DNA of 64,000 nt from Paraspadella gotoi (Eukaryota; Animalia; Chaetognatha): assembly GCA_051294375.1 (NCBI GenBank), contig CM119269.1:12990790-13054789 (forward strand), in the 5' to 3' direction. This document shows, one piece after another, positions 3,001-63,032 of this stretch (position 1 is its first letter; each line of letters starts with the position of its first letter). A model generated the notes under the pieces. It did not search any database, was not told the origin of the DNA, and saw only the letters and a program-made list of their open reading frames with translations. The position numbers and the translations under genes are program-made.

Positions 3001-3647
3001 CTTCCCCTAACCCAATCCCCCAAATCCATCCCCCCTTCCCCCGAATCCCCTCACTTCCCCCCTTTACCCAATCCCTCAAATCCGTCTCCCGTTCCCCCGA
3101 ATCCCCTCAATTCCCCCTTACCCAATCCCCCCTTCCCGAACCCTCCTCACTTCCCCGCTTCCCTTCCAGAGACCTCGGTCTCTCCGACGCGGAGATTCAA
3201 CGTCGTCTCGAGGAGAATCGAGAAAGAAGATCACAAGCGGAGGCGGACATGAGGGCGGCGAAGAAGGCGGGATCGATTCAGGTCCAACGTTTTACTCTAA
3301 TCTTTAACAACGACTGATTGTAATGAAATTATAATTTCACTAAACCGTTTCTTTAATCTCAAACACAACGAAACGAAAGAAAAATGAACAATGTCTACTA
3401 TTAACCTCTATATTTCCAGCCAGAACCCCAGAGTGTGTCAAAATATTTTGAAAATATATTAGCTCAAGATGAGTGTAAATTGAGATATTAAAACTAGATT
3501 ATGAACGAAAATCCTAGAAAGTGCGAATAAAAAAAATGACTGACCGACCATGGTTTGTTCAGATGGAAGACGCGTTGGCCAAGGGCGCGGCGGCGGGGAT
3601 GGACGACTCGAAGGCAGCGGCGGAGGTCTCCAAGGATTTGGCCAGGT

Positions 3648-5693: not shown

Positions 5694-8600
5694 CTTCTCT
5701 TCTTCTCTCTCTCTTCCCCACAAGGACGAGAGCCTCATCCTCGACGCAGAGATGAAGCTCATCCTCCTCGTCGCCTACAAACATAAGAAGTTGCCCTACA
5801 ACAAGCGAGAGCTCGAGGGTCACTTCAGGCGCCTGCACAAGAACGCCCTCATCGGGTTCACGGCGCCCGGGGACGCCACCGCCGACGCCAAGTCCGCCCT
5901 CGAGAGCGCCAAAGCTGCCAAGGCGGCGGCGACGAAGGACATTCAGGCGAAGATCGGAAACGCGGCGTCGCTTTCAATGGACGACCTGGAAAAGGTTGAA
6001 AGGGGGCGTGGCGGATGATTAGTAGAGTTATCCGAATTTGTAAAGCTATTGCGTTTTAAAATTATTCGGAGAATTACACAATGTCGAAGAATAGTTAAAA
6101 TTATTTCGTTAATTATTTAACGAGGCAAACCTTACCGACCCTCTAACGGGTCGATTGGCGAAAAAGCAAATTAGCATTGTTTCATTTACATTAGTTTTCT
6201 TTTGGATTATGATAATTAAAATTGATAATTATAGAAGTTTAAAAATAACAATAAAAAGTAATGAAACTTAAATGCTTTGAGGATATTTTCGGCCGTGCGC
6301 TCGTTATCATTAACTCGTTTCCTCTTTTAACTAGTCGTGTTAATATATTTTATAATAATATGAGTAATCGTTATTCCATTTCACGCCTTTATTCATGGAA
6401 TCCTCCAGGTCATCGAATCGTTCCACATGGAAGGCCTCAGCGCCGGCTCTGACGGAGACCTCTACAAAGCAGAGAAGGAGCTCCTGCAAAAGACCATCAA
6501 AACAGATCCTAATAAACTGAGGAAGAACCTCAGACTCGTCTCCTTCAACGGACTCAAGGTGAGTCATTGCTCTTTTGTTGATCCCGGTTCCATTCGTTTG
6601 AATGGGTTCATCGCTGCGTAGATGGCGCTGCCAGAATTGGATCAGAGCTACCCGGAAATCAACGAGGAGATGAAGGAGAAGGAGAGGTTGAAGGCCGAAT
6701 GCATCAAGGAGCTTCAGCGGGGAATTAAAGAAAAAAACTTGGACGTCCTGCAGGTCACTGCTGCTGCGGCTCCTGCAGATATTTGTCACGGTCATGTAGA
6801 GTTTGCCGTGTCGATTGCAGTGCAATCATCATTTGAGCAAGAAACTCGGTCTCGAAGAGAGCACGGATCCAATCGGCAACGCCAATAAAATGATTTTCGA
6901 GCTGCTGAACGGAGACGCCAAGGGCAAAGGTAGATCGAGGAAAATTTATGTTGTTGTTGTTGTTGTTGTTGATTCAATCCGATCGTCACAATACTCTACT
7001 ATTCAAATACATTACAAATTTCTAAGGGGGCGGGGACATGGATTTGTCGCGTTTCAGCAAAATGAGCATCGGAAGTTTGGAGCAATTGTTGGAATCGTTT
7101 AAGAAAAATGGTTTGGGAGACGATCACCCCGCAGTGAAGGTTCGTCCATTTTCGATTGACTTTTGTTTTTGGAGAACTATTGTTTTGTTATTACTTGCGA
7201 CAGGCGGCGAGAAAAGCTTTGGAAGATCAACGTCGCGCCAAAGAAGAAGCGAAAAAGGAACTGGAAAGAGCTATTGCATCGGGGGTATGAAAGAAAGAAA
7301 GAAAGAAAGAAATAAAGAAATAAAGAAAAAGAAAGAAAAAGAGAAAGACAAATAAAGTAAAATATTAAAACAGAACTGAGCACAAAAAGAATGTTATCCC
7401 CCCAACGCTTGCAAGGATGTCGACGCAATCAAAAAAGCGATGGACAAGCTGAAGACGACGGGCGGCTTGGACGACAACGAGACCAACATGTTGCTCGACG
7501 GGATGAAGACGTTGGAGAAGAATGTCAAAGAGGAGAGCAAAAGATCTCTGAGCGAGGGCATCGACAAGGCTGGAGCATGTCAGTGCTTTCCCGTTAATGC
7601 ACTTAAGCCTTAATTTAATCGATCCCTTACTTTGAAAAAAATTGAATCGTTTCTCTTTTGTGTGTTTATGTTTTAACTTCGTTATTATCTCTCATTTTAT
7701 ATTTCATTCAAAAGAAAAAAACCAAAGTCAGGTGCTATGGTGGACTAAAATCCACCAACCGTTCATCAGCGGCCATTGGTGCCGGAGGCAAGTCGTTCGC
7801 CTCCCGCCCCGGGGGTCCGGGGTTCTAGCCCGGTGGTCGTCTGGCAGTTTGAGAGGGACGGGGCGCTTGACCCGCCTGTGGCATGGTGTTGCGGCCTGGT
7901 CCGAGGCTCGGGACTGCTTATATTGAACGGTTCTGTCACTATAACTGTGAGAGAGTCTTGATTGAAAGCTTGCAGGGACCTGCTATGACATTATCTTGTA
8001 AGAGTGATGGAGGCGTTAAACCACCAAAGCCTGTCCAAAGTCAGGGGCAAGATAGCTTATTTATTAAATGAATGGATAATTTTTATATTGGTTGTACCAA
8101 TTTCATAAAATTTCAGCTCCTTGTATTTTGATGCTAGTGCGGAGTACAATAAGTATTCCCCGATCTAATACTTAAGGAGTGGTCTTTTTATACAATTGAA
8201 ACATTCTTTGAAATATTTTCCACTTCATTGATAGGGAAGCCAGGTACTCTGGGAGTGAATAAACGAGACTGTGAGAGAGTCTTGATTGAAAGCTTGCAGG
8301 GACCTGCTATGACATTATCTTGTAAGAGTGATGGAGGCCTTAAACCACCAAAGCCTGTCCAAAGTCAGGGCAAGATAGCTTATTTATTAAATGAATGGAT
8401 AATTTTTATATTGGTTGTACCAATTTCATAAAATTCAGCTCCTTGTATTTTGATGCTAGTGCGGAGTACAATAAGTATTCCCGATCTAATACTTAAGGGA
8501 GTGGTCTTTTCATACAATTGAAACATTCTTTGAAATATTTTCCACTTCATTGATAGGGAAGCCAGGTACTCTGGGAGTGAATAAACGAGACTGTGAGAGA

Positions 8601-11600
8601 GTCTTGATTGAAGCTTGCAGGGACCTGCTATGACATTATCTTGTAAGAGTGATGGAGGCCTTAAACCACCAAAGCCTGTCCAAAGTCAGGGGCAAGATAG
8701 CTTATTTATTAAATGAATGGATAATTTTTATATTGGTTGTACCAATTTCATAAAATTCAGCTCCTTGTATTTTGATGCTAGTGCGAGTACAATAAGTATT
8801 CCCCGATCTAATACTTAAGGGAGTGGTCTTTTCATACAATTGAAACATTCTTTGAAATATTTTCCACTTCATTGATAGGGAAGCCAGGTACTCTGGGAGT
8901 GAATAAACGAGACTGTGAGAGAGTCTTGATTGAAAGCTTGCAGGGACCTGCTATGACATTATCTTGTAAGAGTGATGGAGGCCTTAAACCACCAAAGCCT
9001 GTCCAAAGTCAGGGGCAAGATAGCTTATTTATTAAATGAATGGATAATTTTTATATTGGTTGTACCAATTTCAATAATAATAATTACTGTCTCTTCATTG
9101 GTGAGCCCGACTTCCGAACACAACAGCAACAACAAAACTCTCAGGCGACATGCCTCAACCTGGCGATGCACTTTCCGCCCACAACACATCAGGCGACATG
9201 CCTCAACTTGGTGACGAACTTTCCACAACAACAACAATTCACTGAAGAGACGCAACAGACTTCTCCCTACGGAGGGGGGGATGTATGGTGGACTAAAATC
9301 CACAACCCGTCATCAGCGGCCATTGGTGCCGGAGGCAAGTCGTTCGCCTCCCGGCCCGGGGGTCCGGGGTTCTAACCCGGTGGTCGTCTGGCAGTTGAGA
9401 GGGACGGGGCGCTTGACCTGCCTGTGGCATGGTGTTGCGGCCTGGTCCGAGGCTCGGGACTGCTTATATTGAACGGTTCTGTCACTATAACATAATAATA
9501 ATTACTGTCTCTTCAGTGCCGTATTTTTTGCATAACAAAAGTGAATCATTAAATAAAATAATAATGATAATTTTATTTTTAGATGATGATGATGATGATC
9601 CAGAATTAAAAGCTGTTATGAAAAAACGTTTAATAACACTCACGTTAAAAAATATCGAGAAAATTTTTAAACAAAGAAACAAAATCCTGAAATATAATCA
9701 CTTATTGATGCCCCACTTTGATCTCCTTTACAGCCGCTGGCAAAAAAGCCGTGGATGACCTGGAGAAATTCGGGCTCGACAAAGACGGGGAGGTTTTGAA
9801 GAGCGGCGGAGAGGCGGTCAAGGGGCAGCAGTCGAAGGAAGACGCGGCGCGGAAGCGGCTGGAAGATGCGCTGAGGAAGGGAAACGACAGGGAGATACTA
9901 GAGGCTTTGAAGGTCCGACTTATGTATTCCCGTGTAAAGTGTAAAGTATTCGGTACACAAAAACTAAGTACGATCATATTTTATCGGTATTCACTTCCAG
10001 GCTGCACGAGGTGTGCTTCCCGACGATGATCCGCTCATGAAGAGGGCCGAGCAGCACCTCGTCCAGGCGGCTCTCAAGGATGACAAGCTCATGAACGACG
10101 TTAGTTCATATTATAATTATTAACAAGAAGTTTCTATTGGTACAACCAATAAAAATTATCCATTCATTTAATAAATAAGCTATCTTGCCCCTGACTTTGG
10201 ACAGGCTTTGTGGTTTAAGGCCTCCATCACTCTTACAAGATAATATGACATAGCAGGTCCCTGCAAGTTTCAATCAAGACTTTTTCACAGCTCGTTTATT
10301 CACCTCCAGAGTACCTGGCTTCCCTATCAATGAAGTGGAAAATATTTCAAAGAATTTCAATTGTATAAAGAACCACTAACCTAAAACTAACACCTAGACC
10401 ATTAACACCTAAAAAATATATTAATGTATTAAGTGAAAATTCTCTCTTTCCTCTCTCTCGTCTTCTCTACATCTCTCTCTTTCTCTTCTCTCTCTCTCTC
10501 TTCTTCATCTTCTCTCTCCTCAGCTGAAAAACGTGATCGGACGCCAAGCTATGGAGGAGGCTATCGCGGATATGGAAAAGTCGGGGGCGGACCCGGCAAC
10601 GATCGCAAAGGCCAAAGCCAATTTGGCCGATATGGAGTCACGTGACGCCAAGCTTAAGAAGGAATTGGAGGTGAAGCGTGCCGGTCGACTTCGACAGCGC
10701 CGTTGACCTTTTTTATTTAAAAATTGTAAATCTGAAACGGAATTGTGAGCAATTGAAACATTTTTTGTTTTTTTTTATCTTTTGTTTTTGACGACAGGCG
10801 GCGCTCGAGTCGGGCGACCCGAAGAGAATACAGGCGGCGCTGGAGAAAGCCAAGGCCGCGGGCCTGATGAACGACGATCCGGCCCTGATTCAGAAGGCGG
10901 AACACTTTCTTCTCAGGCGCGTTGAGTGAAACTTAGCCTTTACTTACCTTTAGTTTGGGTTCTAAATCCAAATACTAAATTAGGATGAGCTATGTATTAA
11001 TTTATTTACCTCCAAGTGCATCCGTAATCCGTATTACAGGGCGGACCCCAAGGCCGCTAAGGAGAATCTGAAGAAATCCTCCGTGGAGGCGGCGGAGGGA
11101 TACATGACAGGCAAACCTGGCGCGACGAAGGAAGTGGCCGCGCTCAAGGAGAGAGATGAAATGCTGAAGAAGAAGTTGGAACAGGCTTTGGCCTCGGGTG
11201 CGAAGCGCTGTGTTGGCACACATTTCTATGAATTATTTTCTATAATTTTACTCTTAATTTTAAAAATTTATATTGATATCAGGGAGAGAGTCGCTGATCC
11301 GTCAAGCCTTGCTCGAGTGTAAAGAGGCCGGACTCACGGACAAAGACTTGGGCGGACTCATGACAAAGGCTGAGAAGCAACTCGTGAAAGGTCCGCACAA
11401 CAAATCGGACAAGGTCATGGCCACCTTCGAACTTATGTCCGAAGACGCGCTGGCGAAAAAAATCCAAGAGTTGAAGGAATCGGGTAATTTTGGGTTTCTT
11501 GTCGTGACACGAACTTAATAGTTAATAAGACGCTTTTTGGTCTTACTATTCATAGATTTATTTTTTTTTTAAATAAATTTAAAAATAAAAAGGAATTCCG

Positions 11601-14600
11601 AAAAAAAGTTTTAAATACTAAAATTACACGTTTTTGAAGTTCAATGGGAAAAGGCGAAAAAGAAGTAAAAAAAGATAGATAAAAAATATATATAGAAAAA
11701 ATATTTTATTTTTATTAAATTACAATAATAAAAGAGATTACTGATTGAACGCTGTTTGTTTTTTTTTTTGTTTTTTTTTCTTTATTTACTTTTTAGTTTT
11801 GGCATATTATTTTATTTTCTTTAATGTGTCGATCATTTGACAATCCAGGCGAGGATCCTCAACTTTTGGCCGAGCTCGAGAAGGTGCTGAAGGAGAAGCA
11901 GGCCAAGGGAGCCAAACTTCGGGCCGAGTTGGAAAAGGCCATCGAATCTCGAAACATCGACAAGTTGGAGAAGGCGATCGACAACTTCAAAGCCGCCGGA
12001 CTAACTCAGGTAAGCCCGGCGAGGATCGAAACTCTCGTGATTGTCCAAACTGTAAAAAACTAACGCCTCCGACGAACGGCGCAGGCGGACGGACCGCTGG
12101 AAGAGGCTGAGCTTCTCCTGCTGCAGCTGCTGATGGAATCGGGCGACATGGCCCGATTGGAGAAGCGGATGCGTCTGGCCGGAAAAAACGCCGTAGCTAA
12201 GGCCTTGAAGGAAGCCGAAGCGGCAGGACCGGACTCGCCGGCCGCGAAATTGGCTGCCAAGTTGGCACATTTTATATTTAAAATTCTTTTTTATGAAACT
12301 TGAACATATTTTTATTCGGTTTTATCCATTTCGGTACATATCATCATATATCTTTCATCCAACCGTACAGCTTACATTTTAAAACTTATCCGATATGATA
12401 TATTTTAGCGGCCACAATATCCACACATTCGTCCATCCGCCCTTTAGAATCTTAAAAGAAAAAGAAAAGGAAGAAGACGACATCAAGGAGCGACTTCGAA
12501 AGGCCATCGAGTCTGGCGACAAAGCGGCGTTGGCAAAAGCGTTAAAAGAGGCCAAGGCCGCCGGAATTGCTGACGGTATGGTTGATTTGATTATCCTTGC
12601 TCTTCGGTCTTCCTGCTTTCGAGATTTTCATAAAATTTTGGTTGATCATCATTCATGGCCCTGATTTTTCCAGACGGACTTATCTCTCAGGCGGAATCTA
12701 TGTTGATTGACAAAGCGAAAGGCGACCTTAAAGCTGCGCAACGTGACATCAAAGAACAGGTTGGTGTGAGACTGCGGAGTCTGGCCGAGCGGGATGGAAA
12801 GTCATATTTGGGCTAACGGGCTACCCGTCCATACACCGGTCTAATACAGTAGTCTAAATGCGAAAACACATCGGGTAGGGATACAGTGCAGTTTACCTTT
12901 AAACGACGCGTTTATTCTATAAATTACCATCTGAAGCGATGAATCCAAACGACCAATTAAAGAAAAGGAGAAAATCAAAAAAACTAGAAATAACAAAAAC
13001 AACTAAAAGCACTGTTCTCGACAAAACAGGCCTTCAAATCGAATAAAGGCGCCGTGGACAAATTTGCTGGCGGAAAAGGTGGAAAGTCGGTCGCTGGCGT
13101 CAAAAAGGTAGTTTATTTGCTTATTCACAATTGACAAAAATAAACTAAAGATTGTTCTTATTTTGACATTTTAATTTGCCTCAGCAACTGAGCGAACGCG
13201 ACGAACAGCTCGTTGCCGCTTTGAAGGAAGCCATCGAAATTGGGGAGATATCCGTCCTCGAAGCCGCCATCAGGGACTATCGAGGGGCGGGTTTGACCAA
13301 CAAGGAAGGTCCGCTCGACAAGGCAGAGATGTTGCTTATCATGTTGATTAAGGTGAAAAAACTCGCGCGGAATTGAAGACAAAAATACGGAATTAATGAT
13401 TCATGTCTTTGACCGTGATTTGGGGGGGGATTTGTAAAAAATATAAAAAATCCATTGCATTTCTTGACAACAATAAAAAAATTAAAAATCGCAGACCAAA
13501 GATTTGTTACTGGAAAGAGAAATAAAAAAATATATCCAAAATCAAATTTACAAATTAAGCATCGCAGGAAACCAAGAATTAAAATTTGATACTCATTAAT
13601 TTAATGATTGCTTTCAGAAAGCCGAGGAGAACGGTGAAACCGTCCGTCGGCCGAGTTTCTTGAAGGACCGAATCGACGACCCGTACGGACTTAAAGGAAA
13701 GTTAAAGACTAAAGCGGATTTGGAGAGGGAGATAAGGAAGGCCATGGCCGCCGGAGATATGGGAAGATTGGAATATCTGTTGGATCAAGCCAGGGCACAG
13801 GGTTACAACTCACAGGTGAAGCGACGGTTTTTGTTCATTAAAATATTTTCTAAAAGTCTATTTGAATAAAAATCTATTTTAACAATCTTATTGGAAAATT
13901 GGCTCACCTTTTCCCGTTACGTACCCCCCTTTGAAAAAAAAAAAACAAAAAAAAACATCAAGGACCTCGGAATCATGAAACAAGCGAAAAAGCAACTTGA
14001 AGCCGGCGTCGGCAAAGCGCGCCGGTTCAGCGCCGAGGAGCGCGCCAGGATGAACGCCGCCCGCGAAAAAGGACTCGCCATGGAGGCGGAGGCGATGAAG
14101 ATCAAGGATCCGAAGGAGAGGGCGTTGGCGCTCTTACGGGCGGCCGTGGTGATGAGGTGAAATGACAGTTGTGAGAGCTATAGATGGATGATGAAGAGGT
14201 TGTTTTTTGTTAGGACAAAGAAAACAGGTTTTTAGCCTGATTTAAAAAATTATGTTCGTCCATCCGTATGTCCGTTCGTCCCCCCTTATCTTTAAACGCT
14301 AATTACTCATGAGTGGATCTGGTGATTAAGTTGAAATTTTGTATGTGGGTAAAGAAGTTTGTGATTGTTATGGAAATTAAGTCCCAGTGGAAATGAGTAA
14401 ATACAAGCTTCAAAAACTCTAATAACAATTAATTAATTAATATATTAATTAATAATTATTTAAATTATTAAGTAATATGATAATATAATTACAAGATTTA
14501 GCAAAAAATATCGAAGCTGCACAGATAATTATTAATTAATTATTAAATAATCATTTAATTAATTATCTGATCTCCTGCTTACGGCTAATTGTGAGCAGAT

Positions 14601-15984
14601 GCGGCATTGTTTGCTCAAACTTGTTTATCTTCTTTTAGCCTTGTAAATCTCAAAAATAGTTCAATATTAGAGAAATAAAGTCCTCGGATATAAACTCTCG
14701 AGGCACTTCTCATCTCAAGGGCCAAATTGGTGGCACCAATTGTCAGATTCCTCACTCACGCAATTCGTCTTTCAAATAACCTCGTCCCTCAAACCCGATA
14801 TCTCATTGCACGATTTGGTCTTCAACCGATGAAGGGACAAGAAGAAAATTGAGCTCCGTCTGGAGGAAGTTAAGAAGGTTGGGGCTAAAGTCCCCAAAGA
14901 AGAGATGGATCAGATCAACTACCTCTTGGGTGTTCTGGATTGCCGCGCCAAGACCCTCAGAGCCATCAAGGACAAGGACGCGGTTCAACTTGAGAAACAA
15001 CTCAAGATTGCAAAAGCCAAGGGTTATTTCGAAGATGAGGAGCACGCGGGTGAGGAACAGGAGTTACGTTTACGTTTAAGATTTAACTTAATGTTTATAG
15101 TGAAATATTATAAAGCATTGTATTTTAGGGAAATTAAGCTTACTTACAATTTATATGTATGCTGTCTCTCTCCATATTTTTGTTTGGACAACTCATTTTT
15201 GCGCTTAGTATTTAAAGTTGAAGCAAAGTCGAAACATTTCCCCGATTTTCAAAAATAGAAATCTTTGCTGTTTGTTTTCCGACCATGTTTTCATCAGTCA
15301 TCACTTTTATTTTTGCCCACCACGCAGGATTCTTCCTTAACGCCGAGCATCAGTTAGGTCTGATGATGGCCATGGACGAAATCATAGAAGACGTTTGGAC
15401 AATGACGGGTTACGACATTGCTGAAGTCAGAACTTATCGATGCCCTCCAAAAGGTAATTACTATTTAGAACTCATAAAAGAGCAGAGCGCACCAGTTTTG
15501 ACTTCTTGACTCACCCTAGGTGTCCGAAGTGTCATCCTCGCTTTTTTTCGTCTGCTCGGCTACGAATGGCAATACCTTCAGTCGTGGAAACAAATCCAGG
15601 TCGCCACGTCTTTTTAGTGTCCAGTGGATCGAAATGGATTGGCCGATAATTGATTGGCCAGCGTTTAATCATCCAGTTTTATTTGCCAGGTGTTGTTGAC
15701 GTTCTGGTTGAAGATCACGTCTCGCTACATCCTCGGCCGGGTCGAGCCTAAGGATCTTCAGTACGAACACGCCATGGACGCTAAAAAGCTTCTGACGGGT
15801 ATTAAACCAAGGAAGAAAACTGCGGCTCAGTTACGATTTATTTTTAAAGGGAAAAATGGTTTCGATTTTAGGCTGGGATACGGACGCGATGATTTATAAA
15901 TCAAAGCCCGTAGCGGTTTTCTTCCGTTGGACGTACAACATGGTTTATCAAGTGACGAACTTTAGAGATGTCAATGACGATTGA
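1..15984 (+). CDS. Multi-exon (>30 exons), 5'-truncated large alpha-helical repeat protein with C-terminal dynein microtubule-binding-domain-like module
   Basis: GC-rich exons bounded by GT/AG encode recurring units like L.KAIESGD...L.KAL.EAKAAG..D. The last exons (15328-15453, 15520-15599, 15690-15798, 15872-15984) splice in frame to DIAEVRTYRCPPKGVRSVILAFFRLLG...W...SKPVAVFFRWTYNMVY, stop TGA 15982-15984. The start lies outside the window and some 5' exons have apparent indels. Confidence 0.75.
507..915 (+). mobile_element. Non-autonomous Helentron/DINE-1-like (HINE) element, family H1
   Basis: Sub-terminal inverted repeat GCCGGATCTGC / GCAGATCCGGC, 3' palindrome CCGGAATCTGCTGTAAGCAGATCCGG and a GGAC microsatellite. 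A related inverted partial copy lies at ~14233-14620. Confidence 0.55.
1030..1645 (+). mobile_element. Diverged copy of the ~610-bp hAT-like MITE
   Basis: Colinear with 25421-26032; ends TTTTACTACGCCGTTA; left TIR decayed. Confidence 0.7.
2440..3165. repeat. C-rich intronic minisatellite (~50-bp unit)
   Basis: Tandem CCCCGAATCCCCTCACTTCCCCCTTACCCAATCCCCCAAATCCGTCCCCCTT variants. Confidence 0.9.
3975..4215 (+). mobile_element. HINE-like element, family H2 (partial)
   Basis: Shares sequence with 33153-33600; GACC/GACA microsatellite and terminal palindrome GTTGCTCCGCGAATACTCGCGGCGCAAC. Confidence 0.55.
4985..5180. repeat. AT-rich ~60-bp tandem repeat (about 3 copies)
   Basis: GATGATTTTTGTTAAGTTAAATTAGGTTAAGTTTGATCAAATTTAAACAAGAC repeated. 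Confidence 0.85.
7733..7945 (+). mobile_element. Family B element, partial unit: tRNA-like head (7769-7840) plus twister-like fold (7843-7918)
   Basis: Direct repeat of 9283-9491. 7-bp acceptor-like stem GCGGCCA/TGGTCGT and B-box-like GGTTCTAGCCC. Twister-like order: P5, GA-CGGG, palindrome, UGA, P2, GCC, P3, P4 with loop UCCGAGGC. Confidence 0.7.
7992..8054 (+). ncRNA. Type-P5 twister ribozyme, family A copy 1 (P1 palindrome broken: AGGCGU)
   Basis: P5 UAUCUUG/CAAGAUA; GA-UGGA pairs with L4 UCCA (T1); UAA site; L2 ACC with L4 GU (T2); P4 CCUG/CAGG. Confidence 0.7.
8316..8377 (+). ncRNA. Type-P5 twister ribozyme, family A copy 2
   Basis: Same fold with AGGCCU P1; predicted U^A cleavage 8341/8342. 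Confidence 0.8.
8637..8699 (+). ncRNA. Type-P5 twister ribozyme, family A copy 3
   Basis: Same fold; predicted cleavage 8662/8663. Confidence 0.8.
8960..9022 (+). ncRNA. Type-P5 twister ribozyme, family A copy 4
   Basis: Same fold; predicted cleavage 8985/8986. Confidence 0.8.
9074..9518 (+). mobile_element. Family B element, full ~418-bp unit plus start of next unit; twister-like fold at 9390-9464
   Basis: ATAATAATAATTACTGTCTCTTCA occurs at 9074 and again at ~9492; contains the second copy of the tRNA-like plus twister-like module. Confidence 0.7.
10136..10376 (-). mobile_element. Family A dispersed, 5'-truncated copy with twister (10181-10242)
   Basis: Reverse complement of the array unit; one C lost in the L2 ACC motif. 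Confidence 0.85.
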
Positions 15985-16543
15985 GCGTCGACCTCGAGTT
16001 AGCTGAATACTAGTGAATAAGATGATGGAAGAACTGGTTAAAAGTTCGGCGATAAATAAAACAAATTTACCTCAATTTTTCTAATCGTCTAAAATATATT
16101 TCGAATCGAGGAAAAAAAAGTTATTTTAAGATTATCATCAAAACTTGAAAATATTAAAAACATGGCGGACAATTTCAGAATTTTAAAACTACGTCTCCAG
16201 GTTAGGCAACGATTTAATCATTAACGATGGTTTTACCATAGTTTTGAGAAAAAGCTACCTGCAATCTTTAATAAACGTTAAAACGAAAAATAAAGAATCG
16301 GCTACGTCGACAGAGAAACGGGTAACGCTTTGTACACAAAGACGGCTTGAAGTTAAAGTTACCGGTAGTAAGAGGGGCGTGGTAAAGACGGTTTTAAACC
16401 AGTCGTTGTGAGTTAAAAACGATTTCGAACTCACACAATGCCGCCCTCTAAAAACGATCTAATGGGAGGGAAATGGTTAGCCGTAGAGCAGGGTAGACAG
16501 GGATCATGGGTATTTAACAACTTCGTCCCGAAAGTGGAACGAA

Positions 16544-17762
16544 TCAAGATACGTAAGACATGGGGCGGTCGTGTAGGCGTCGCTGGATCTGATCGTACGT
16601 GAACTTGACAAAAGCATCGTACTGTTCGGCCAATTTGTCGGTCAAAACGCGATCGTACTCTTCGCGTAGAGCCGCTTCCCGCTCGCGGACAAGGCGGTCG
16701 CAGATTAGGTTCACCTTTGACAAGGAAATGGGAATTTTGAAATGCTGACGTGATTGGATGGTTATCAAGTTATGATTTAAGGAATTTACTTGTTTGAAAT
16801 TGAAAATGGGTTTGTCCTCTTTGTCCTGCTTGGTCGACGACGCTGTAGCTGCCGCGGCTGGCGCGGAGTCGGCAAAGGAGGAAGTCGACGGAAGCGGAGG
16901 TGATGACGCAGCGACAACCATCTCCGCTTCGGAGTCGCTCCCCGATCCGCTATCTGAATTAAGAACAATATAAATGTAGCAGATTAATTTGTGGATTATC
17001 TCAAATGAGATCGAGTTCAATCTCATTTGCTTATTGTCGTATTCTGATTAATTTTTGTTCTATTGCCCTAAACCTAAAGGTTTAATATTAATATTTTAAA
17101 ATAGTATAAAAGTATTTTAAATATTATTTAAAACCTCCAAACCATTAAGTTAAATATCCAATGAAACTATATTAACCGATGTCATGTATAATCAGGGTAG
17201 CCATTTTCATACAAAATTAAGCCTCTGTTACATAAAACTTAGCGCCCAAAAGATTTTCAACAAATAATGAATTAAGTCTACACGAATCGTCAGAAATTCG
17301 TCCCGAGTTTATCTATCCGTGATTAACACTACCAATAATTAATAATAATAATAATAATGATAAATGACCTTGCTGCGTTCCGTCGGTGGCGTGAGCCTCT
17401 TCGGCGTTGGTCTCTGGATGACGAGAGCATCGATGTTGACTTTTGATTTGACGTCGTCTCTGCATCCGACGAAGTTCAGCCTGGATTTTGGCCGCGATCA
17501 CGACTGAATCCAGGAAGGTAGAAAAAAGTTGAAAATGAAAGTTATTACTACTATTAATTTATTCGGTTTTTTTAATAAACTAACCGTTTGTCATCGGAGG
17601 CTTGACTTCCCCGAACGGCGATGGTTTCGTGGGCGTCGAGCTCGAAGCGGCCGCCGTCGGTGAGACGGTCATCGGCGCGCATCTTTGCCGCTTGGGGGAT
17701 TTGTGGTGATCGTGGAGAAGAGGATCAAAGTCCAAAGAGCGCTTCAATGTCGCGCAAGCCAT
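16544..17762 (-). CDS. AKIRIN: Akirin (4 exons)
   Basis: N-terminus [22 protein letters not shown]; C-terminus [32 protein letters not shown]...MSYVS. Confidence 0.97.
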
Positions 17763-18535
17763 CTTCGTACGAATGTGGGAAGGCCGCTCGAATCTGTTTT
17801 CTGTATAAAGAAAGGATACGAAATATAATCAATTATAGAGTAAATTTGCTGAATCGAAACTAAATCGTTGGTCGTTCGCCACATGACAGTTTAGGATATA
17901 ATTATGCAGATCTGATATACCTTAATAGTTGAATTACGGCATGAACGCAAGTGAACTCCAGTCTTTACTGCTGTTGGGTTATAAGATTTTCAAGTTAAGC
18001 TGTGGGAAGCATATTGGTATTAATTTCTGAAAAAGATTAAAGTATATTTATATTCAAATATTCTTATGATACATAATAAGACTACAAAATATCTAAAAAA
18101 TGAAATCATTTCAACATTGCACCCTCATGGCGGCCATAACCGCAAGCTGTTACAAATGGAGATCTAAGAAGGCATGTATTTAAATCGTTCTCAAGGTCAA
18201 AACGTTTTTTAGAGGCAAATGATGTCCAACTAGGAGTATCTCCTTTAGCTACCACGAGCAGGATATTTAGGCAGTGGCGGAGGCCATTAAGGATGCGTAA
18301 GCACGTTGCAGACGGAACCGGAGCCCTTGGAAGAGTAAGAAAATTATGACCTTATTATGCATTATTTTCCGAAATGCAATGAATAGAATGGTGCAAAATT
18401 GAAAGAGAGTAACGGATGCTGAGCCCGCAAGGAGGGGTGGCGATTTTATATATTTTTTCTTTCAGTCAGCAATTGCCCGAACTGCCATTCACTGCCGTGC
18501 GGGGAGGAGATTAAAGTTTAGTTTTAAATAAACCG

Positions 18536-18682
18536 ATTGGTTAACAACTTCTTTAATTCCTCTTCTCATTGGTTGACGAAAAAGATTGATCATTTTGAGA
18601 ATACGACCACCTTTGCATCGTCATTCGCACATTGGTTGTCGGCTGATTGGTTTCATATCACTCCGCTTTATTTTATCCAATC
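18536..18682. promoter_or_regulatory. Cluster of CCAAT boxes, candidate divergent promoter upstream of akirin
   Basis: Four ATTGG(TT) and one CCAATC within ~150 bp between divergent genes; akirin has an acceptor-like AG ~40 nt upstream of its ATG, implying an upstream non-coding exon. Confidence 0.4.
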
Positions 18683-19758
18683 ATCGCCCACGCAGCTGAT
18701 TTCTGTTTGAGCCTCATCACTCCTTGATACTTAATTGTCGGTTCGCTTTGTATTTCTCCGCTTTTCTTACTCGCGGTTTTTAAAATTAAGTAACTTCGTT
18801 TGTTATCAAAATTTGTTGCGTCGGTGTTCGAAGATTGGTGGAAACAATGGAACGTTTACAGGTTCTTTTAAAATTAGTGTCGACTGATTAATGGTAAGGT
18901 TTTTATGCTGCAGAACAACATAAATGAACCGAATAACACGAATGACTTTTTCCAAAAGGATTAGGAACTAGTTTTTGAGATGGCGTTTCATCGGCGCTGC
19001 CCTCTGCCAATCATGGTGCGACATGAATTCCTTGTCCCTGGAATTTCTTTTCTTTTTTCTTGCCGATAATAAAAAAAAAAAATCAGTCGGGTTCCTTAAT
19101 ATTGTTCGCTACTTTTATACCGAATTTTTACCACTTGTGAAGGGTCCGTCTGCAAATTTCTGGTTTCGAAATTATCTGATTTCATTTTGTCAATTTCCAG
19201 TGCACTGGGCAGTTAAATTTAAAATCTGCAAGATTTGGCAGCCAATTTGTGATCATTCAGATAAATTCGTTTTGTATTATATGTGATAATTATATTGACG
19301 GGAAAATTTACAATGATATTTAATAACTTTGATTGAACGTATGGCACATAGTGGATAACGGCACCGGCATGACTGAAGTATAAATATTTTGTACGAATTT
19401 GTATTTCTAGTCAGAGTTTTATCGGTTAATCATTTGAAGTAAAATTTAAAATAACCTTTTGAAAAAAAGGTAATTCGCCAACCGACATTTTGCTATATGT
19501 TATTTTTTTAATTTTTTAAATTTGTTTATTTATTTATTTCTTATGAGCGACGTATAGAAATCTCGTTACGCAAAAATAAAAAGGGACACTGGTAAGGGTA
19601 GAAAAACTTTTTATTACAAATCCCTAACCCTACCCACCCCTAATCCTTAACCAACCTCAACTCAATTGCTAACCGTTTAAAAAATATAATGAAAATATTG
19701 TTTTTCCTTTCCTTTTCTTGTTTGTTTACATAATATGAGTTTAATTAAGAAACAAATT

Positions 19759-19945
19759 TCAGACAGGTTTCGGCTTCAATGTAAACCTTTTTCAGCGCAA
19801 AAGCGAATTGATTTGTGAAACAAATATTTTCACAGACTTTGTCTTTGACGTTTGAAGAGAGAGAGAGAGAGACAGTCTGAACATATTAGTTTCACAAATC
19901 AATTCGTTTTTGCGCTGATGAAAGCTTACAGAGTTCGGACTTGAA
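19759..19945. mobile_element. Inverted pair of Penelope-type fragments, each ending in a decayed minimal hammerhead, around a GA microsatellite
   Basis: ~70-bp inverted arms. Minus arm reads GCG-CUGAAAA-A-GGUUU..AAGCC-GAAA-CCUG-UC; plus arm reads GCG-CUGAUGA-AAGCU..AGUUC-GGAC. Confidence 0.55.
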
Positions 19946-21919
19946 TCTTACCCCCTTAATTGATCCCTCCCCACGCACGATTGTTTTAAAAAAATTGTTT
20001 TATTTTTTATAGCAGAATAATTGTTAAGTATTTTTTTATCTTTTGGATTGTATTTAGTTTTGCTATGTCGAAAAACATTAGTATGGGAAGCAACCGAAAA
20101 CCAGGAGTCATGTTTGCTCCGCGCCCAAATAATTAAAAATTCTTACAAAAGTTACAATGACCAATCTAGTGGGTTTCTTTATGGTGGTATTGAGAGAGTA
20201 CTGTTTATGGATTTCTCAAATAAAAAATCTAACTTCTAGCATAAGCCAAAATTGTATAACAAGCAATATCAATCAGTTAGTAATTTAAATTTTTTTATTT
20301 TTTTAAAAAATTGAAGTTGCAGTATGCTGCAATAAATTGAAGTACCATACATTTACCGGGATTAGGTCCCTCACTTATAAACCATCGAACTATGTTATTT
20401 ATACAGCATAATATACTATGTTACTAGTATAAAGTAAGATTTTTTTAAATATAATTTCTCCGAATTTTGGCTTCAGGGCATTATCCCCCATATAATACAG
20501 TATCTAAAATCATTTGGATATTGCATTATGGGGCGAATTAAATGTAATACTCAACAGTACTTGTAACCGGAATTACATCAAACTCGACCCATTATTGAAT
20601 ACACAGTGGTTCCAAGAATATAAATTTTGCGCAACAAAAACTGACGTGTTGCGTAAAAATGTTTTTTGGGCATCGACTGAAATCTAAGATAATGAAGTTT
20701 CTAAATATGTTTTCGGTTTTAACCTACATGTAATCGTTCTCTAGTAATAAAAGCCCAAAGTTATTCCTAAAATATCTCAATTGTTAGTCCTTGTCGGCAA
20801 TTATCGTTTGATCTAGCTATTATCGTAGAAATAGACCTCCGTCTCTATACTCTCTATAGACCTCGTCTTGATATTCTTGTTAACATCCCACTCATATGTC
20901 GCGAGTCTCTGGATCTAACGATAGCTTGCTGTTTAGTAAATATCTTTTCAGGTTTAAGACTTGTGATTATATTTAACGGTTATAACAACATAAGAGATAC
21001 CGATACATCAAAACTGGATTATCTTGCAAGGGAAGAAATTTAACCATTTGCGCTAAGGCTTTAGATGATATTTAAGTAGTGGTGATTTTACTATCCTTTT
21101 TAACACGGCTTTCACTCAGCAAATCTTTTTAAATGACGTTCTAACGTAACATGCTTTGGTGTTCGGGTTCCTCTGTAAATTTTTACCGATCCGCTTTACC
21201 CGCGCCAGAGGCAGGTGGTGGCCCTTGCCTAATAAAACGACAAAAGCAACGAGAACACTTAAGTTTAGTTTAGTAATTACGATCGAAAAAAGGTGTGCTT
21301 TTGTGGAAGAATGAATGTACTCGGAGTCGATCAACTTAGGCCAGTCTATACTTGCCCCTTTCACCCTCATTTCGAGGCTACAATGATTCGGTTAATTTTT
21401 TTTTCTTTTTCCCTAGTCCATTTTATTTATCCTCCTCTAATATTTACTTAAATATTTATCTCCGTTTCTCTCTCTCTCTCCTGATTCCCCGCATTTTCTC
21501 ACAGCTTTTTCATTTTACATTTTTTATTTTTTCGTTAGTCTAGATTCTAAATAAGTTTATTTTTGTAGTGTTAGATCTCTGATTCTATATATCCCTTGAT
21601 AATTATATTTCTCCGTCTAAACCGGCAGGATCGATTTCGCGTTTCGGAGAAACCGGTTATCCTCTTCGTTCGAAACGTGTCTCACTGTGCAGCCGTGGTC
21701 GTCGTCTCGGACTCGATAATCCTTTTTTCGCTTTAATTCGATTTTCTCTTTTCTGCTTTCGGTCTCTTTTACCTCTTTTCTCTCTCTCTCTGCCCCCTTC
21801 ATTTCTCTCTAGGGGGGGAGTTTGAACTTTTTATCAACTTTTATTCCAGAATAAATATACAAATGTTATTCCACGCGAATTTAATTTGGCGGCACCGAAA
21901 TTAAAACCTTTTTTCCCTG

Positions 21920-24900
21920 ATGAGTGGCGTTGGCCTGGCGGTAATCACTGCCGCCCTAACCCCAACTTTGCCTGGTCGTCTTCGGCCTTTTTTCAACGCA
22001 GTCGCCGTCGAATGCTCCGCCCTCTATCTTCACTTGACACCGGCGGTCGGCAGCGCCGCCTACGTTGACGCCCCTTTGGCACCGGGATTCCGGTTGGCGA
22101 CGCTTCCGGTGGACGATTTAGCACGTCGCGTCATCGGAGGAATTTACGGAGACGCTATTCGGGTGGCGCCTATGGTTGACGTCAGGTGACATGAGGCATA
22201 AGTCTCTGATCGCACCCATCAACTCTTCATATCTTATTCTCCCAACAGAATCATACTATCGAACTTCGGCAAAGATCCTCTCTGGCGTCCCGCCCCTCAT
22301 CGCCTGTCTCGCCGATTGACCCACATATTCACAGATCATGACGACTCGTCGCTCGTCGCCACTTACGTCCATGGCTACTTTTCTAGTCTCCACTCCGATA
22401 AGGACCACCTTCATGTCAGGGATTTGGTCATAGATCCAGACAAGACGACGTCGCAGGCTCCCGCGAACCCCGTTCCAACTTTTGATCACGTCGTTCTTGG
22501 CGGAACTTTTGATCGACTTCACGCTGGACATAAAATGCTATTAAGTACATCTGCACTCGTCGCGAATAAGGTCGGAATAATCGATGTAATATTGTTTCGA
22601 TTTCGAGTGACTTACGAGGTTATGAATGACTTACCTTATATAATATTCGCGTTTATCTATTACATTTTTTCTTATGTATTCCGGCAGAGCGTCACAGTTG
22701 GAGTAACAGATGGAGAGATGAACCGAAAGAAAACGCTTTCCGAACTCCTCGAACCCACGAAACATCGGGTGGAGACGATTCGCGATTTCTTGCTCGAGTC
22801 GAAACCAAATTTGGAGGTGATAGCCGTTCCCATCCTCGACGCCTTCGGTCCTTCAATCGTCGACGAGCGACTTCAAGGAATCGTCGTTTCTCAGGTTTAC
22901 ATACAGGGGTGGGACCCTATATAGAGACAAGGCTTAACGTCCTGCCCTGTCTGAATGATTTTAGATACAATAATATTATAAGTGGCAAAAGTTTTTTCTG
23001 GCTTTTTACTTCCATATACAATTAAAAAAAATAAATTTTTAAGCAACTACAAGGCGTTGTGAATGTTTTCAAAACATTTAGTCGTTTTTATGCGCGCGCA
23101 TTGCATTGCATACGATAAAAGCCTGATTTTAAGCTTTTCAACACTATCAAAATTTTTTTTCTGGTAAGTAAAACAAAATTTTATGAGGATTACAACAAAT
23201 ATGCTTAAATTGTCAAATACATCATGTATTTCTTACCTTTTTGACGCTTTTATTATGCATTCAGAAAGCTTACATGATTCATTTAATTACCTGACAATAT
23301 TGTTAATAAACTTTTTGATAAAAGTAAGTTTTAATAAAAATTAAACGATAACAGAAACGTACCCAAACCTTACCTGCTTATTTAAAAATTTTTTAAACCA
23401 AAATACCATGTACACTAAGGCGTAGTGAAAGTTACATACGAAAATTATAAAAGTCAATTTTGAACAACATACCATCAGTGAACATTAATTTATAAAAAAA
23501 ATTAATTTTATGTTTTTTAATTTTCGCAGTAGGCTATATTTATATATAGTACTATTCTTATAAAATCAAAAAATTTTAAAATAAGCTTATCTTAATTTTG
23601 ATTGCAGATTTGAATTCCTCGTCAAAAGTTGATAAAAGAAAATATAAATCATTTTTAAAAATTCTTTCATTAAGTGAGTTAAAAATTAAAAAACTATATT
23701 TAATATATAAAAAGTTAATTTTCAGTTTAAAATATAGCTTTTTCTAATTTTTGACCTACTTAATGAAGGAATTTTTCAAAAAGAGTTATATTTCTTTTTA
23801 TCAACTTTTTATGACGAATCCAAATCTTCAAAAAAATCTTTAAAAAAACTGTTTTGAAATTTTAACATTTATTGGTTTAGTACTAGTATAAATATGGCCT
23901 ACTGCGTGAATTGTAAAATTTATTATAAATTTTTTTATTACATAAATGTTTATTAGTATAATGTTGTTCGTTCCTCATTTTTAGAATTTTAATTAAAGTT
24001 AAATTTAGAAATTTTACTACGCCTTAGTGAGGACAGTTATTAAATGTTTTGTTTACGTTTTATCGAAACAAACAAATTTCCTTTATTATGTCTCCTCTCT
24101 CTTTTTTCTTTTAATTATATGTAGCTCTCTCTCTCTCTTTTCCCCAGGCTGATTCATCGATATCGGGGAAATAAACGAGTCTGCAGCTGGCTCTGCAGGG
24201 GCTTTCTTTCTTTTTCTCTCTTTTCTCCTGCTGCTTCTGCTGCTGCCGCCTTTTGATTTATTTCTTTTTTTCTGGCTGCCGCTGCTGATTCGTCCGAAAA
24301 CGATTTGGCTTCTCTCTCTCTCTCTTTCTATCTCTCTTTCTCCCTCTCTCTCTTTCTTTCTTTTTTTTTCTCACTGCTGATCAGTTTATTTGACAATAAA
24401 AAAGTTGTTTTTTTTCAGAAACTTTAATTTTCCTCCGTACTTTATTATTTTTTTGATTTATATATAAAACATAGTTTTCCTTTATAAAATTTGATTTTTT
24501 GAGTGTCAAAGTTTGTCATGAGTTCATATTTTTTTTATACAATTGCGACGATTTTTAACTTTGTCTCGATATAGGGTCCCACCCCTGTAAAATAGGAAAA
24601 TAATTTTATTGACTAATAAAAATGACTTAGAAATTAAGTCGAAATATATGGCAAAAAATTTAAATTTTTTTGTTTCTTATGCACAGTTTCTCCATAGTGA
24701 AAATAAGTATTTAAATAAGAAAATAATACTTTTAAGAAACCCGAATCAAGTAATCTAAACTGCTACAATACGCAAAGTTTGAAAAACACAATCTCATTTG
24801 AAATTAATCACAGGAGACTTCGAGTGGAGGCGACGCCGTAAATTTAAAGCGTAAAGAGGCTGGCCTCTCTATATTAGAAATAGTCACTGTGCCTTTGCTC

Positions 24901-26813
24901 GAGGAGAATGACTTTGAAGATGGCGTCCGTGAGATCACTCATGAGGACAAGATGAGCAGCACCGCCAAGAGGATTGCCGCTCTGGGTAATTTTAAAGCTT
25001 TTATTCTAGCCTCGCTGATATTTATTTCTTAATTATCTATCTTTAGTATGACTTGTCAGTCAGTCTTACGTGTATTTAAAACTCTTATTTACAATACTAT
25101 GAATCTCACCGTTGGCTTTAGGGGCTTCCGACCCTCAGGGGCACCGCCTGCCACTGGCACGGTTACCCTAGGACGGTCCCGCTTTGCCAACGCAGTGGAA
25201 GTCGTTAGGACTCTGGAATATGGATGGAACGTAACACTTGGGATGGTGCGTTCCTTCTCTGAGCATTGGCTGAATGTAGCTTGATGTAAGGCGGTGTGAA
25301 TTTACCACCACAACATATAATTTTTGATTCGTTATATCAATAGGTTTTTAATAACATAATGACCTAATTGAAACTGATAAATTGTAATTTTCTATACTTT
25401 GTACATTGTACAATGTACAGTAAGGCGTAGTGAAAGTTACATACGAAAATTCTAAAAATCAATTATGAATAACATACCATCAGTGAACATTAATTTGTAA
25501 AAAAAATTAATTATATGTTTTTTAATTTTTGCAGTAGGCTATATTTATATATAGTACTATCCTTATAAAATCGAAAAATTTTAAAATAGTCTTATCTTAA
25601 TTTTGATTGCAGATGTGAATTCCTCGTCAAAAGTTAATAAAAGAAAATATAAATCATTTTTAAAAATTCTTTCATTAAGTAGGTTAAAAATTAAAAAAAC
25701 TATATTTAATATATAAAAAAATAATTTTCAGCTTAAAATATAGCTTTTTTTAATTTTTGACCTACTTAATGAAAGAATTTTTCAAAAAGAGTTATATTTC
25801 TTTTTATCAACTTTTTATGACGAATCCAAATCTTCAAAAAAATCTTTAAAAAAACTGTTTTGAAATTTTAACATTTATTGGTTTAGTACTAGTATAAATA
25901 TGGCCTACTGCGTGAATTATAAAATTTATTATAAATTTTTTTATTACATAAATGTTTATTAGTATAATATTGTTCGTTCCTTATTTTTAGAATTTTAATT
26001 AAAGTTAAATTTAGAAATTTTACTACGCCTTAATGTACAGGCACTTTGTTACGATCTCCGAAACGGCGAACTCCGAACAATTTCAAACCGGCCTACGTGA
26101 TCGGGCTGACTGGAGGGATCGCGAGTGGAAAGACGGGAGTTGCTCGAAGACTAGAACGGTTTGGGGCCAAACGGATTGACTGCGACTTATTGGGTCACGC
26201 GGCTTACAAGAAGGTGGTAGGATCGTTTATGGTTTAGCTAAAGAATACTTACAATTTTATGATGGACTTTTTAATTTCTCGCCTATTTTTTCATTTTGAA
26301 TTTTTCATCTACAAACAGGGAACGCGTTGCTTCGATCAAGTTGTATCCCGTTTCGGCGTCGACGTCGTCGACTCCACATCCGGGGAGATCGATCGTCGCG
26401 CGCTAGGCGCCCGCGTCTTCGGCGACGCGTCTCGTCGCGCCGATCTCAACGCCATCGTGTGGCCGGCCATCCGTGAAGCGGTTGAGAAGGAGATTCGATC
26501 GGAAGAAGAACGAGAGAAAACTGGTCGTCGATCGGTGGTCGTCGTCGAGGCGGCCGTCCTTCTCGAGGCCTCGTGGAACGATCTCGTCGACGAGGTCTGG
26601 GTCTGCGTCGTTCCGCCTTCGGAAGCCGTCAAACGTGTCGTCGACCGCAACGGCCTCTCCGAAGCTGACGCCCGTTCGCGCGTCGAGGCGCAACTGTCCA
26701 ACTTGGAACGCGTCGCCTCCGCCAACGTCGTCGTCTGCACGCTATGGGACCCGGCCGTGACGGAGCGTCAATGCGAGAAGGCGTGGAAACTGCTTCTCGA
26801 CCGGATTGACTGA
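21920..26813 (+). CDS. COASY: Bifunctional coenzyme A synthase (PPAT + dephospho-CoA kinase), multi-exon
   Basis: VVLGGTFDRLHAGHK (HxGH), KMSST motif, YVIGLTGGIASGKT P-loop, EAAVLLEA.W. Confidence 0.96.
22904..24587. mobile_element. Non-autonomous Tc1/mariner-like element (1.68 kb) in COASY intron
   Basis: 27-bp TIRs CAGGGGTGGGACCCTATAT(A/C)GAGACAA, flanked by TA at 22902-22903 and 24588-24589; no transposase ORF. Confidence 0.8.
23416..24026 (+). mobile_element. hAT-like MITE nested in the Tc1-like element
   Basis: TIRs TAAGGCGTAGTGAAA / TTTTACTACGCCTTA; near-identical to 25421-26032. Confidence 0.85.
25110..25192 (-). ncRNA. Type-P5 twister ribozyme with P3, family C, antisense in a COASY intron
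   Basis: Minus strand: CGUUGGC(P5) AAA GCGG(P2) GA CCG(T1) UCCUAGGG(P1) UAA CCGU(P2) GCC AGUGGCA-GGCGG-UGCCCCU(P3) G AGGG-UCGGAAGC-CCCU(P4/L4) AAA GCCAACG(P5). Confidence 0.9.
25421..26032 (+). mobile_element. hAT-like MITE with 8-bp TSD ATGTACAG
   Basis: 15-bp TIRs and a perfect 8-bp duplication at 25413-25420 and 26033-26040. Confidence 0.9.
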
Positions 26814-58371: not shown

Positions 58372-59023
58372 TAAAGGTTTCCAACAAAGAATTGAGTAAG
58401 GACAGTGATCAGTTTTAATCCCAAAGAAATAAGTCGAGACATGTCGAAACGAACGCGTAGATTTTTAAAAATCCTTAGCCATTCTAATATTTTTCCCCAT
58501 TTATATTTGTTATATATTATGAAATTGGTACAACCAATATAAAAATTATCCATTCATTTAATAAATAAGCTATCTTGCCCCTGACTTTGGACAGGCTTTG
58601 GTGGTTTAAGGCCGCCATCACTCTTACAAGATAATGACATAGCAGGTCCCTGCAAGCTTTCAATCAAGACTCTCTCACAGTCTCGTTTATTCACTCCCAG
58701 AGTACCTGGCTTCCCTATCAATGAAGTGGAAAATATTTCAAAGAATGTTTCAATTGTATGAAAAGACCACTCCTTAAGTATTAGATCGGGGAATACTTAT
58801 TGTACTCCGCACTAGCATCATTATTATTATATATATCATTATTATATATGTTTGTTATAAAATATTCGATTTCATTATTTTTTTTCTTTCGTGCAGACGC
58901 GACGTGAACGATTCGCTGAAGTCGTCCTCGACCGGTCAGACGGGAATCAACGGCTGCGTCTCTTTGTCCGCGGGCGGCGACGGTGACTCCCTGGTCGTCG
59001 CTTCCGGAGACATGATGAGTTGA
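52724..59023 (+). CDS. XPO7: Exportin-7, multi-exon
   Basis: [68 protein letters not shown]-terminal DMMS. Confidence 0.97.
58236..58276 (-). ncRNA. Minimal type-I hammerhead ribozyme (Penelope-type, palindromic stem III)
   Basis: Minus strand GCG-CUGAUGA-AG-GCUC-GUAUUGU-GAGC-A-GAAA-CAUG-UC^-UGC. Confidence 0.75.
58520..58820 (-). mobile_element. Family A dispersed monomer with twister (58571-58633) in the last XPO7 intron
   Basis: Reverse complement of the array unit, flanked by TTA on both sides; T1 strand is UGGC instead of UGGA. Confidence 0.88.
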
Positions 59024-59589: not shown

Positions 59590-59990
59590 ATAGCAAAATA
59601 TAATATATTTGTAGTAATATCCTTATAAAATAGTAAATTTTAAAAATAATTTTTATAAAACTTTTAATAAAGATTCAGATTCTTCATAAAAAGTTGAATC
59701 AAAAATATAAAACATGTTATCAAAAATTCTGTCATCTTCAATGTTTAAAATAAGAAAAAAGGTAAAAATTCCTGACTTTTTTATTCTCTGTAGTAGAAAC
59801 TTATATATGTTAAAACGTTTTAGTCATTTTTTGTGATCTAAACATTAAAATATCATATAACATATTTTATAAAAGTTTCTTAGTTTTTTACCGCGAATCC
59901 AAATCAGTTCTTAAAAATAAAAAAAAATTATTTTGAAATTTAACGATTTTATAAGGATATTACTACATAAATAATTGAATTTGCTATACT
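59590..59990. mobile_element. AT-rich foldback MITE related to the hAT-like MITE interior
   Basis: GTAGTAATATCCTTATAAAAT... mirrored by ...ATTTTATAAGGATATTACTAC. Confidence 0.55.
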
Positions 59991-62820: not shown

Positions 62821-63032
62821 GGCGTAGTAAAATTTCTAAATTTAACTTTTAATTAAAATTCTAAAAGTGAGGAAGAACACATTATACTAATGAACATTTA
62901 TGTAATAAAAAAATTTATAATAAAAGTTACAATTTACGCAGTACGCCCTATTTATACTAGTACTAAACCAATAAATTTTAAAATGTCAAAACAGTTTTTT
63001 CTAAGATTTTTATGCAGATTTGGATTCGTCAT
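62818..63032 (-). mobile_element. Truncated inverted hAT-like MITE copy
   Basis: Starts TAAGGCGTAGTAAAATTTCTAAATTT, the reverse complement of the MITE right end. Confidence 0.85.

Follow-up and report, generated by a model that had tools for sequence, protein, structure and literature searches.

Type-P5 twister variants with a palindromic P1 segment in chaetognath repeats and their possible gating by dimerization

How can a self-cleaving ribozyme retain a helix when the segment that should form it has next to no space for a loop? This question is raised by a stretch of 64,000 nucleotides (nt) from the chaetognath Paraspadella gotoi (contig CM119269.1, positions 12,990,790 to 13,054,789), hereafter the window, in which three repeat families, termed A, B and C, carry folds resembling the twister ribozyme. 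The twister class reportedly goes back to Roth et al. 2014. A preliminary description held that the segment between the T1 strand and the cleavage site, which we call the slot, is self-complementary in all three families, and that helix P1 forms between two ribozyme copies. We recover the three families at the positions described, with stems that change from one family to the next, and find that P1 pairing is likely to be copy-to-copy. We propose that P1 is a loop-less palindrome that would pair with the same stretch in a second copy, so that cleavage would be switched on in tandem transcripts and damped in single or circular copies.

A type-P5 twister descriptor composed of the GA, the T1 strand, the slot, U^RA, P2, T2, P4 and L4, with the slot sequence left free, matched nine sites in the window (six in family A, two in B and one in C) and none in 200 composition-preserving shuffles. 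Rfam gave no match in the window at the gathering threshold; at a relaxed threshold, family A matched Twister-P5 (RF02684) with 22.2-28.1 bits against a gathering score of 37.6 and with a P1 loop of length zero, and families B and C had no match at E values up to 5. The hammerhead family was absent from the Rfam results at both thresholds, and the ribozyme of these repeats is a twister fold rather than a type I hammerhead. The U^AA site and the general-base G followed by A are intact in the A and C copies, while the B copies of the window read U^GA at the cut, the family B majority having A at position 9415. The pseudoknot T1 (3 base pairs, bp) occurs as UGG/CCA, CGG/CCG and CCG/CGG across the families, T2 (2 bp, with L4) as AC/GU and GC/GC, and both P4 (3-4 bp) and the closing stem P5 could be found by sequence in A, B and C; copy 1 of family A, for example, combines T1 UGG/CCA, T2 AC/GU, P4 CCUG/CAGG and a P5 of 8 bp. 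P2 has 4 bp in family C (three plus a C·A in the majority) and two pairs plus a C·A in A and B. T1, T2, P4 and P5 differ on both strands between the families and also in a decayed relative of family A, in which T1 (UUG/CAA) and T2 (AU/AU) are altered on both sides while the AGGCCT slot is kept, which supports the fold. As whole units the repeats do not fold with unusual stability (z of -1.11 for A and -0.75 for B). An alignment of eight cores by MAFFT was rejected as out of structural register. Judged from sequence, the folds are a real and apparently unpublished variant of the type-P5 twister.

The register of the slot is set by ordinary P5 twisters, in which the P1 hairpin exactly fills the space from T1 to U^AA. 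The 6-nt palindrome first attributed to all three families is present in A (AGGCCU in four of six copies, the others reading AGGCGT, which breaks the palindrome, and CGGCCT) and in both B copies (GGCGCU, self-complementary with a terminal G·U), and palindromicity is likewise kept in C; the slot of family C, however, has 8 nt (TCCTAGGG, RNA form UCCUAGGG; positions 25166-25173 on the reverse strand, predicted cut after 25165), and CCTAGG is only its core. The claim that no room is left for a loop has to be softened, since one base pair and a tetraloop fit in A and B and two base pairs and a tetraloop in C, although such hairpins are unfavourable (+5.6 and +2.7 kcal/mol). Descent of the B slot from AGCGCU by an A-to-G change was not borne out: of 108 variant rows the 40 listed (apparently those with the largest shares, in our reading of the table) include 9397 and 9415 but lack position 9408, and GGCGCU therefore looks like the state of the family. 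The intramolecular P1 hairpin of the type-P5 twister is thus not found here, the Rfam alignment giving it a loop of zero length and forced hairpins costing +2.7 to +5.6 kcal/mol, and we therefore class the folds as a type-P5 variant and not as plain members.

Slot symmetry could also be examined outside the window. Public collections were scanned for P5 twisters with any slot sequence of 3-14 nt, and for the P3 type too, which gave at least 333 loci, mostly chance matches; the metagenome scan covered 58 of 64 parts with GC-type T2, 4-nt P2 and CCN/NGG T1 only, so that A- or B-like variants were beyond its reach. Filtering for T1, T2, P4 and at least two P2 pairs, with the best arrangement chosen, left 29 distinct twisters, namely 8 of type P1, 17 long-slot P5 twisters (14-42 nt) that serve as controls and 4 P5 twisters with a slot of at most 10 nt, a small sample whose 4:17 ratio of short to long slots is not a frequency. 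All four short-slot P5 twisters, each from the metagenome scan, are palindromic at the centre and each differently so (CAUG, CGCG, GAUC and UCGA), with slots CATG (L162), CGCG (L179), TGAGATCTTG (L241) and TTCGA (L269). The chance rate of central palindromes is about 6%, and the chance of a central palindromic tetramer in all three even-length slots comes to 1.8e-4 (0.01 when just the central pair is considered). With relaxed filters and ranking by P2 and P4 alone, the same four are the top four of the 20 short-slot candidates listed, and a central palindrome is seen in 2 of the remaining 16. Together with GGCC, GCGC and CUAG of the window, seven distinct central tetramers are thus observed. 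As the central bases are unable to pair within a monomer, the symmetry of the slot points to pairing between copies.

No genuine P5 twister with a short slot came from the 213 loci of the viral scans or the 3 loci of the prokaryote genome scan; the apparent ones were rejected as type-P1 twisters (e.g. L058, L168, L175 and L274) or as registers lying inside long hairpins (e.g. L014, L017, L166 and L262). The P3-type scan gave no passing short slot. The translated flanks of the four outside cases, inspected without a Pfam scan, contain no recognisable reverse transcriptase (RT) or GIY-YIG domain. Among the loci we also note phage P5-like twisters (L003 and L004, 150-215) with a 30-nt P1 that is fully self-complementary (15/15 pairs with wobble), and a head-to-tail pair of type-P1 twisters separated by 50 nt on a phage contig (L058, 380-477, reverse strand). 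A C·A mismatch in P2 is frequent in short-slot twisters (A, B, the majority of C, L162 and L179), and a weak P2 may go together with reliance on a shared P1.

Folding predictions describe what a shared P1 would do. The slot duplex of two copies is predicted at -8.3 to -11.0 kcal/mol against +2.7 to +5.6 for the forced hairpins. In an unconstrained fold of the family A tandem, slot-to-slot pairing reaches 0.94 between units 1 and 2 and 0.86 between units 2 and 3, with P4 at 0.70-0.92; in linear and circular monomers of A, P4 is predicted at 0.06 and the slot extends T1 into P4. The natural tandem of AGGCGU and AGGCCU units has slot-to-slot pairing of 0.03 and is predicted to stay misfolded. Under constraints, the swapped arrangement beats the local one by 7 kcal/mol. 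Cofolds of the four outside cases pair at the centre with 0.99, 0.77, 0.96 and 0.31, as against 0.00 in all seven long-P1 controls that folded (L166 is not included). P4 is predicted to be melted in monomers of A, B and C. An additional idea, that the slot arms copy the P4 arms, was abandoned since it holds in just two of the families, A and C.

In the arrangement that we propose, the two slots of a tandem RNA would build one common P1 of 6-8 bp with a predicted active site at either end. This would amount to a domain swap, in which every site takes its GA and T1 strand from one copy and the remaining parts (U^AA, P2, T2, P4 and L4) from the other. In the monomer, and for family A only, the free slot would prolong T1 so far that it takes up the 5' arm of P4, and P4 would melt. 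Tandem read-through RNA would be cut to unit length with 5'-OH and cyclic-phosphate ends, and by analogy with hammerhead retrozymes (excerpts of PMC7229834 and PMC7761336) a host ligase may close the units into circles and a Penelope-like RT may copy them. The short-slot P5 twisters of public loci and the tandem folding of family A both favour pairing of P1 between two copies. It is moderately probable that twister cleavage depends on the dimeric P1, and we infer that cleavage would be damped in monomers and circles. For the proposal in its full extent the chances appear evenly balanced, viz., that the palindrome stands in for P1, that cleavage by a domain-swapped double twister is confined to tandem RNA whereas monomers and circles inhibit themselves, and that this dimer-gated twister, having arisen in parallel to the dimeric hammerheads of Penelope-like elements, is present far outside this genome and acts as the processing ribozyme of twister-based retrozymes.

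Several observations weigh against dimer gating. The folds are nearest-neighbour predictions by ViennaRNA, made without the two pseudoknots. The copies of B (apparently edited) and C (diverged), folded in the form in which the window has them, give slot-to-slot pairing of 0.00 in cofolds. The permutation controls are noisy, with swapped P5 at 0.33-0.51 in 3 of 12 non-palindromic slots and slot pairing below 0.1 in 3 of 8 other palindromes. Candidates L249 and L192 (ranks five and six) have no palindrome and are possible counter-examples. Families A and B have a 3-nt P2 that holds a C·A mismatch, and their scores lie under the Rfam threshold. Excerpts of the literature further report that P1 is dispensable in type-P1 twisters, a P1-less twister cleaving at a near wild-type rate (PMC5408937), and that, when thousands of type-P1 twisters were assayed (PMC11662667), P1 defects occurred without loss of cleavage and P2 defects were tolerated.

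These reports bear most directly on the view that the fold is a monomeric mini-twister whose slot serves as a linker or as a hairpin of 1-2 bp, single copies cleaving well and inter-copy pairing serving template jumping or ligation or modestly aiding folding. Since P1 is dispensable in type-P1 twisters, a monomer with a linker of 4-8 nt may be active; the slot has space for one base pair and a tetraloop, imperfect P1 and P2 are tolerated, and the melting of P4 in monomers is not general, with P4 predicted at 1.00, 1.00 and 0.94 in L162, L269 and L241. This view, however, offers no cleavage-linked reason for seven different centre-symmetric tetramers, loss of P4 is predicted for the monomer of family A, and P1-less cleavage has been termed inefficient in an excerpt of PMC8501958. 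We consider the monomeric mini-twister unlikely, though it deserves to be weighed seriously beside the dimeric P1.

The palindromes could alternatively be unselected and functionless remnants, left when the loop of a long P1 hairpin was lost by symmetric deletion. Long P1 hairpins are the norm, as seen in the 17 long-slot P5 twisters among the loci listed, and their collapse leaves symmetric arms; substitutions are also over-represented in the slot of the window A copies, which holds two of the seven variable columns among six copies (p ~0.025, post hoc), a point that weighs against the dimeric P1 as well. Neutral decay, errors of assembly or selection acting on active copies in introns to their disadvantage may account for these slot changes. 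An origin as remnants is nevertheless very unlikely, as exactly centred deletions would be needed many times, the diverged A relative has the slot unchanged despite the changes in T1 and T2, and no slot variant is found across the family C contigs among the 40 of 53 rows listed. That the folds are relics which no longer cleave, or are not ribozymes but twister-like remnants in satellite repeats, would fit the sub-threshold or missing Rfam matches, the short P2 of A and B and the loss of the catalytic A from the window B copies, and is hardly credible given that catalytic residues and both pseudoknots are all intact in A, C and the B majority and that T1, T2, P3 and P4 covary.

The repeats themselves are likely to be short non-autonomous retroelements. 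Four public runs of the same organism contain A, B and C as highly repeated sequences. In run X1, 22,009 contigs aligned to A and B; to C, 814 contigs aligned, with a summed depth far over that of the flank, contig depth not being equal to copy number. Many contigs exit into unrelated AT-rich flanks at the same place (in X1, 464 at 9073 in A and 138 at 9515 in B), so that the 3' end is fixed in both A and B and lies about 90-100 nt past the predicted cut; the cut of copy 3 of family A lies 88 nt upstream of the common end at 9073. Families A (3.5 units of 322 nt) and B are non-coding tandem repeats whose units fall within 150-450 nt and contain a single ribozyme each. Family B forms a partial tandem of about 420 nt with a 27-nt tail, split by the A array, and the tail of its 5'-truncated copy is found past that array, at 9074-9100. 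A fixed 3' end, 5' truncation of varying extent, a partial tandem and a tail also mark Naiad and other Penelope-like elements, as excerpts of PMC8557442 describe them. Animal retrozymes have been tied to Penelope-like elements in a 2026 preprint, in passages without mention of twister (10.64898/2026.07.22.740005). None of the three families contains an open reading frame (ORF) inside the window, an exact-word search of the Naiad supplement (and part 18 of 59) gave no clear match to A, B or C or to a full twister fold, and no link was found between A, B or C and an autonomous element. Two Naiad tails in that supplement contain twister-like words and palindromes, which we do not count as evidence. 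As judged by eye from GT-AG ends, a long coiled-coil gene has the A/B cluster (7579-9733) in one of its introns, in sense orientation, so that the host pre-mRNA would read through tandem twisters. The copies are collected in Table 1.

Table 1. Copies of repeat families A, B and C in the window and their slots
Feature	Position	Strand	Slot	Predicted cut	Remarks
Family B, 5'-truncated	7736..7945	+	GGCGCT 7862-7867		U^GA at the cut site
Family A tandem array	7944..9073	+			3.5 copies, 322-nt unit, one type-P5 twister fold each; within the family B partial tandem
Family A copy 0	7992..8054	+	AGGCGT 8011-8016	after 8017	Palindrome broken
Family A copy 1	8316..8377	+	AGGCCT 8335-8340	after 8341	
Family A copy 2	8637..8699	+	AGGCCT 8656-8661	after 8662	
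Family A copy 3	8960..9022	+	AGGCCT 8979-8984	after 8985	
Family B, longer copy	9098..9518	+	GGCGCT 9408-9413		27-nt tail
Solo family A copy, truncated	10136..10377	-	AGGCCT 10218-10223		
Family C fragment	25103..25264	-			In an intron of a coenzyme A (CoA)-synthase-like gene; near-canonical type-P5 twister fold at ~25108-25192
Decayed family A relative	37302..37391	-	AGGCCT 37373-37378		78% identity; general-base G lost
Solo family A copy	58514..58820	-	CGGCCT 58609-58614		TA-rich flanks

The B copies of the window have a further peculiarity. They read G at 14 listed places in 9342-9451 where most contigs read A, including the catalytic A at 9415, and both copies (9340-9460 and 7790-7915, forward strand) show G at about 14 A positions, resembling an ADAR-type hyperedited RNA reverse-transcribed as a partial tandem. 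The pattern looks like ADAR-type hyperediting before reverse transcription, and alleles or subfamilies could mimic it. In family C, the contigs reveal a highly variable P3 hairpin with a double-sided change at 25141/25151, and neither the slot nor the catalytic strands have a variant row among those listed. Two contigs of run X9 (records 25 and 26; 2.0 and 3.7 kb), which carry the core of family C close to one end and continue for 1.6-3.6 kb past it, are candidates for the autonomous parent element of this family.

Other repeats and genes are found elsewhere in the window. An RT-matching element (PF00078) at 41800-45700 has overlapping frames and lies inside a GUF1/LepA-like gene, with similar sequence at 40657-40793 and 45751-45887 forming inverted repeats around it; we take this element to be DIRS-like. 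An AT-rich palindromic repeat family of about 630 nt, similar to miniature inverted-repeat transposable elements, occurs at 1005-1646, 23404-24029, 25409-26035, 59600-59970 and 62818-63032, a C-rich minisatellite of 12.6 copies of a 55-nt unit at 2473-3131, and the window also contains an exportin-7 exon with a match of ~74-85% to molluscs, annelids, arthropods and vertebrates, none of them a close relative.

As the preliminary description had supposed, literature searches found no account of such control for twister and no palindromic-P1 or dimeric natural twister, though alignments or supplements of Roth 2014, Kosutic 2015 and Lünse 2017 may hold such sequences; the string 'palindrom' does not occur in PMC10085705, PMC11662667, PMC8501958 or PMC8782182. 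Excerpts of 10.1101/2022.07.19.500677 and PMC6765202 describe only twisters in circular RNAs and dimeric hammerheads, and an intermolecular dimer of the rice twister is regarded as a crystal artefact in an excerpt of a review. If the proposal is true, two unrelated ribozymes would have converged on one copy-counting switch in animal retroelements, and cleavage restricted to tandems would be something that this mode of replication demands rather than a peculiarity of the hammerhead. The proposal would also explain why twister retains a chemically unneeded P1, point to many twisters missed by Rfam thresholds, and provide a small module, simple to test, for producing circles that are not cut again.

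Compared with known systems, here too as represented in excerpts of the sources, the folds of A, B and C share with the type-P5 twister (RF02684; PMC5408937, PMC10085705) the strand order, GA, U^AA, a 10-nt L4, T1, T2, P4 and an open P5, and differ in having a 6-8-nt self-complementary stretch as P1, a 3-nt P2 with C·A in A and B, and sub-threshold scores. The Perere-3 T-variant twisters of Schistosoma mansoni (PMC8501958) and truncated RTE twisters (PMC7761336) are likewise animal retroelement twisters in which activity is tuned by P1, itself weak or variable. They are, however, of type P1, lie at the 5' end of the element and take one P1 strand from the target site, whereas the folds described here are of type P5 and internal, a fixed 3' end following after ~90-100 nt, and would draw both P1 strands from element copies. 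Naiad Penelope-like elements (PMC8557442) resemble the repeats in their 5'-truncated copies, partial tandems, short tail and AT-rich insertion sites; they are reported to be without canonical hammerheads. The likeness is one of layout, and A, B and C are without an ORF in the window. The closest functional parallel is with the dimer-cleaving type I hammerheads of amphibian non-LTR (long terminal repeat) retrozymes and Penelope-like elements (PMC7229834, PMC6765202, PMC7761336). These belong to another ribozyme class, their dimer dependence is shown while that of the twister variant is predicted, and P1 of twister is reported to be dispensable. In both, the helix beside the cut is reduced to about 1 bp and a palindromic tetraloop, a design with which the axolotl hammerhead cleaves far better as a dimer (PMC7229834), and both reside in tandem units of 150-450 nt with a low G+C content that occur as dispersed and tandem copies.

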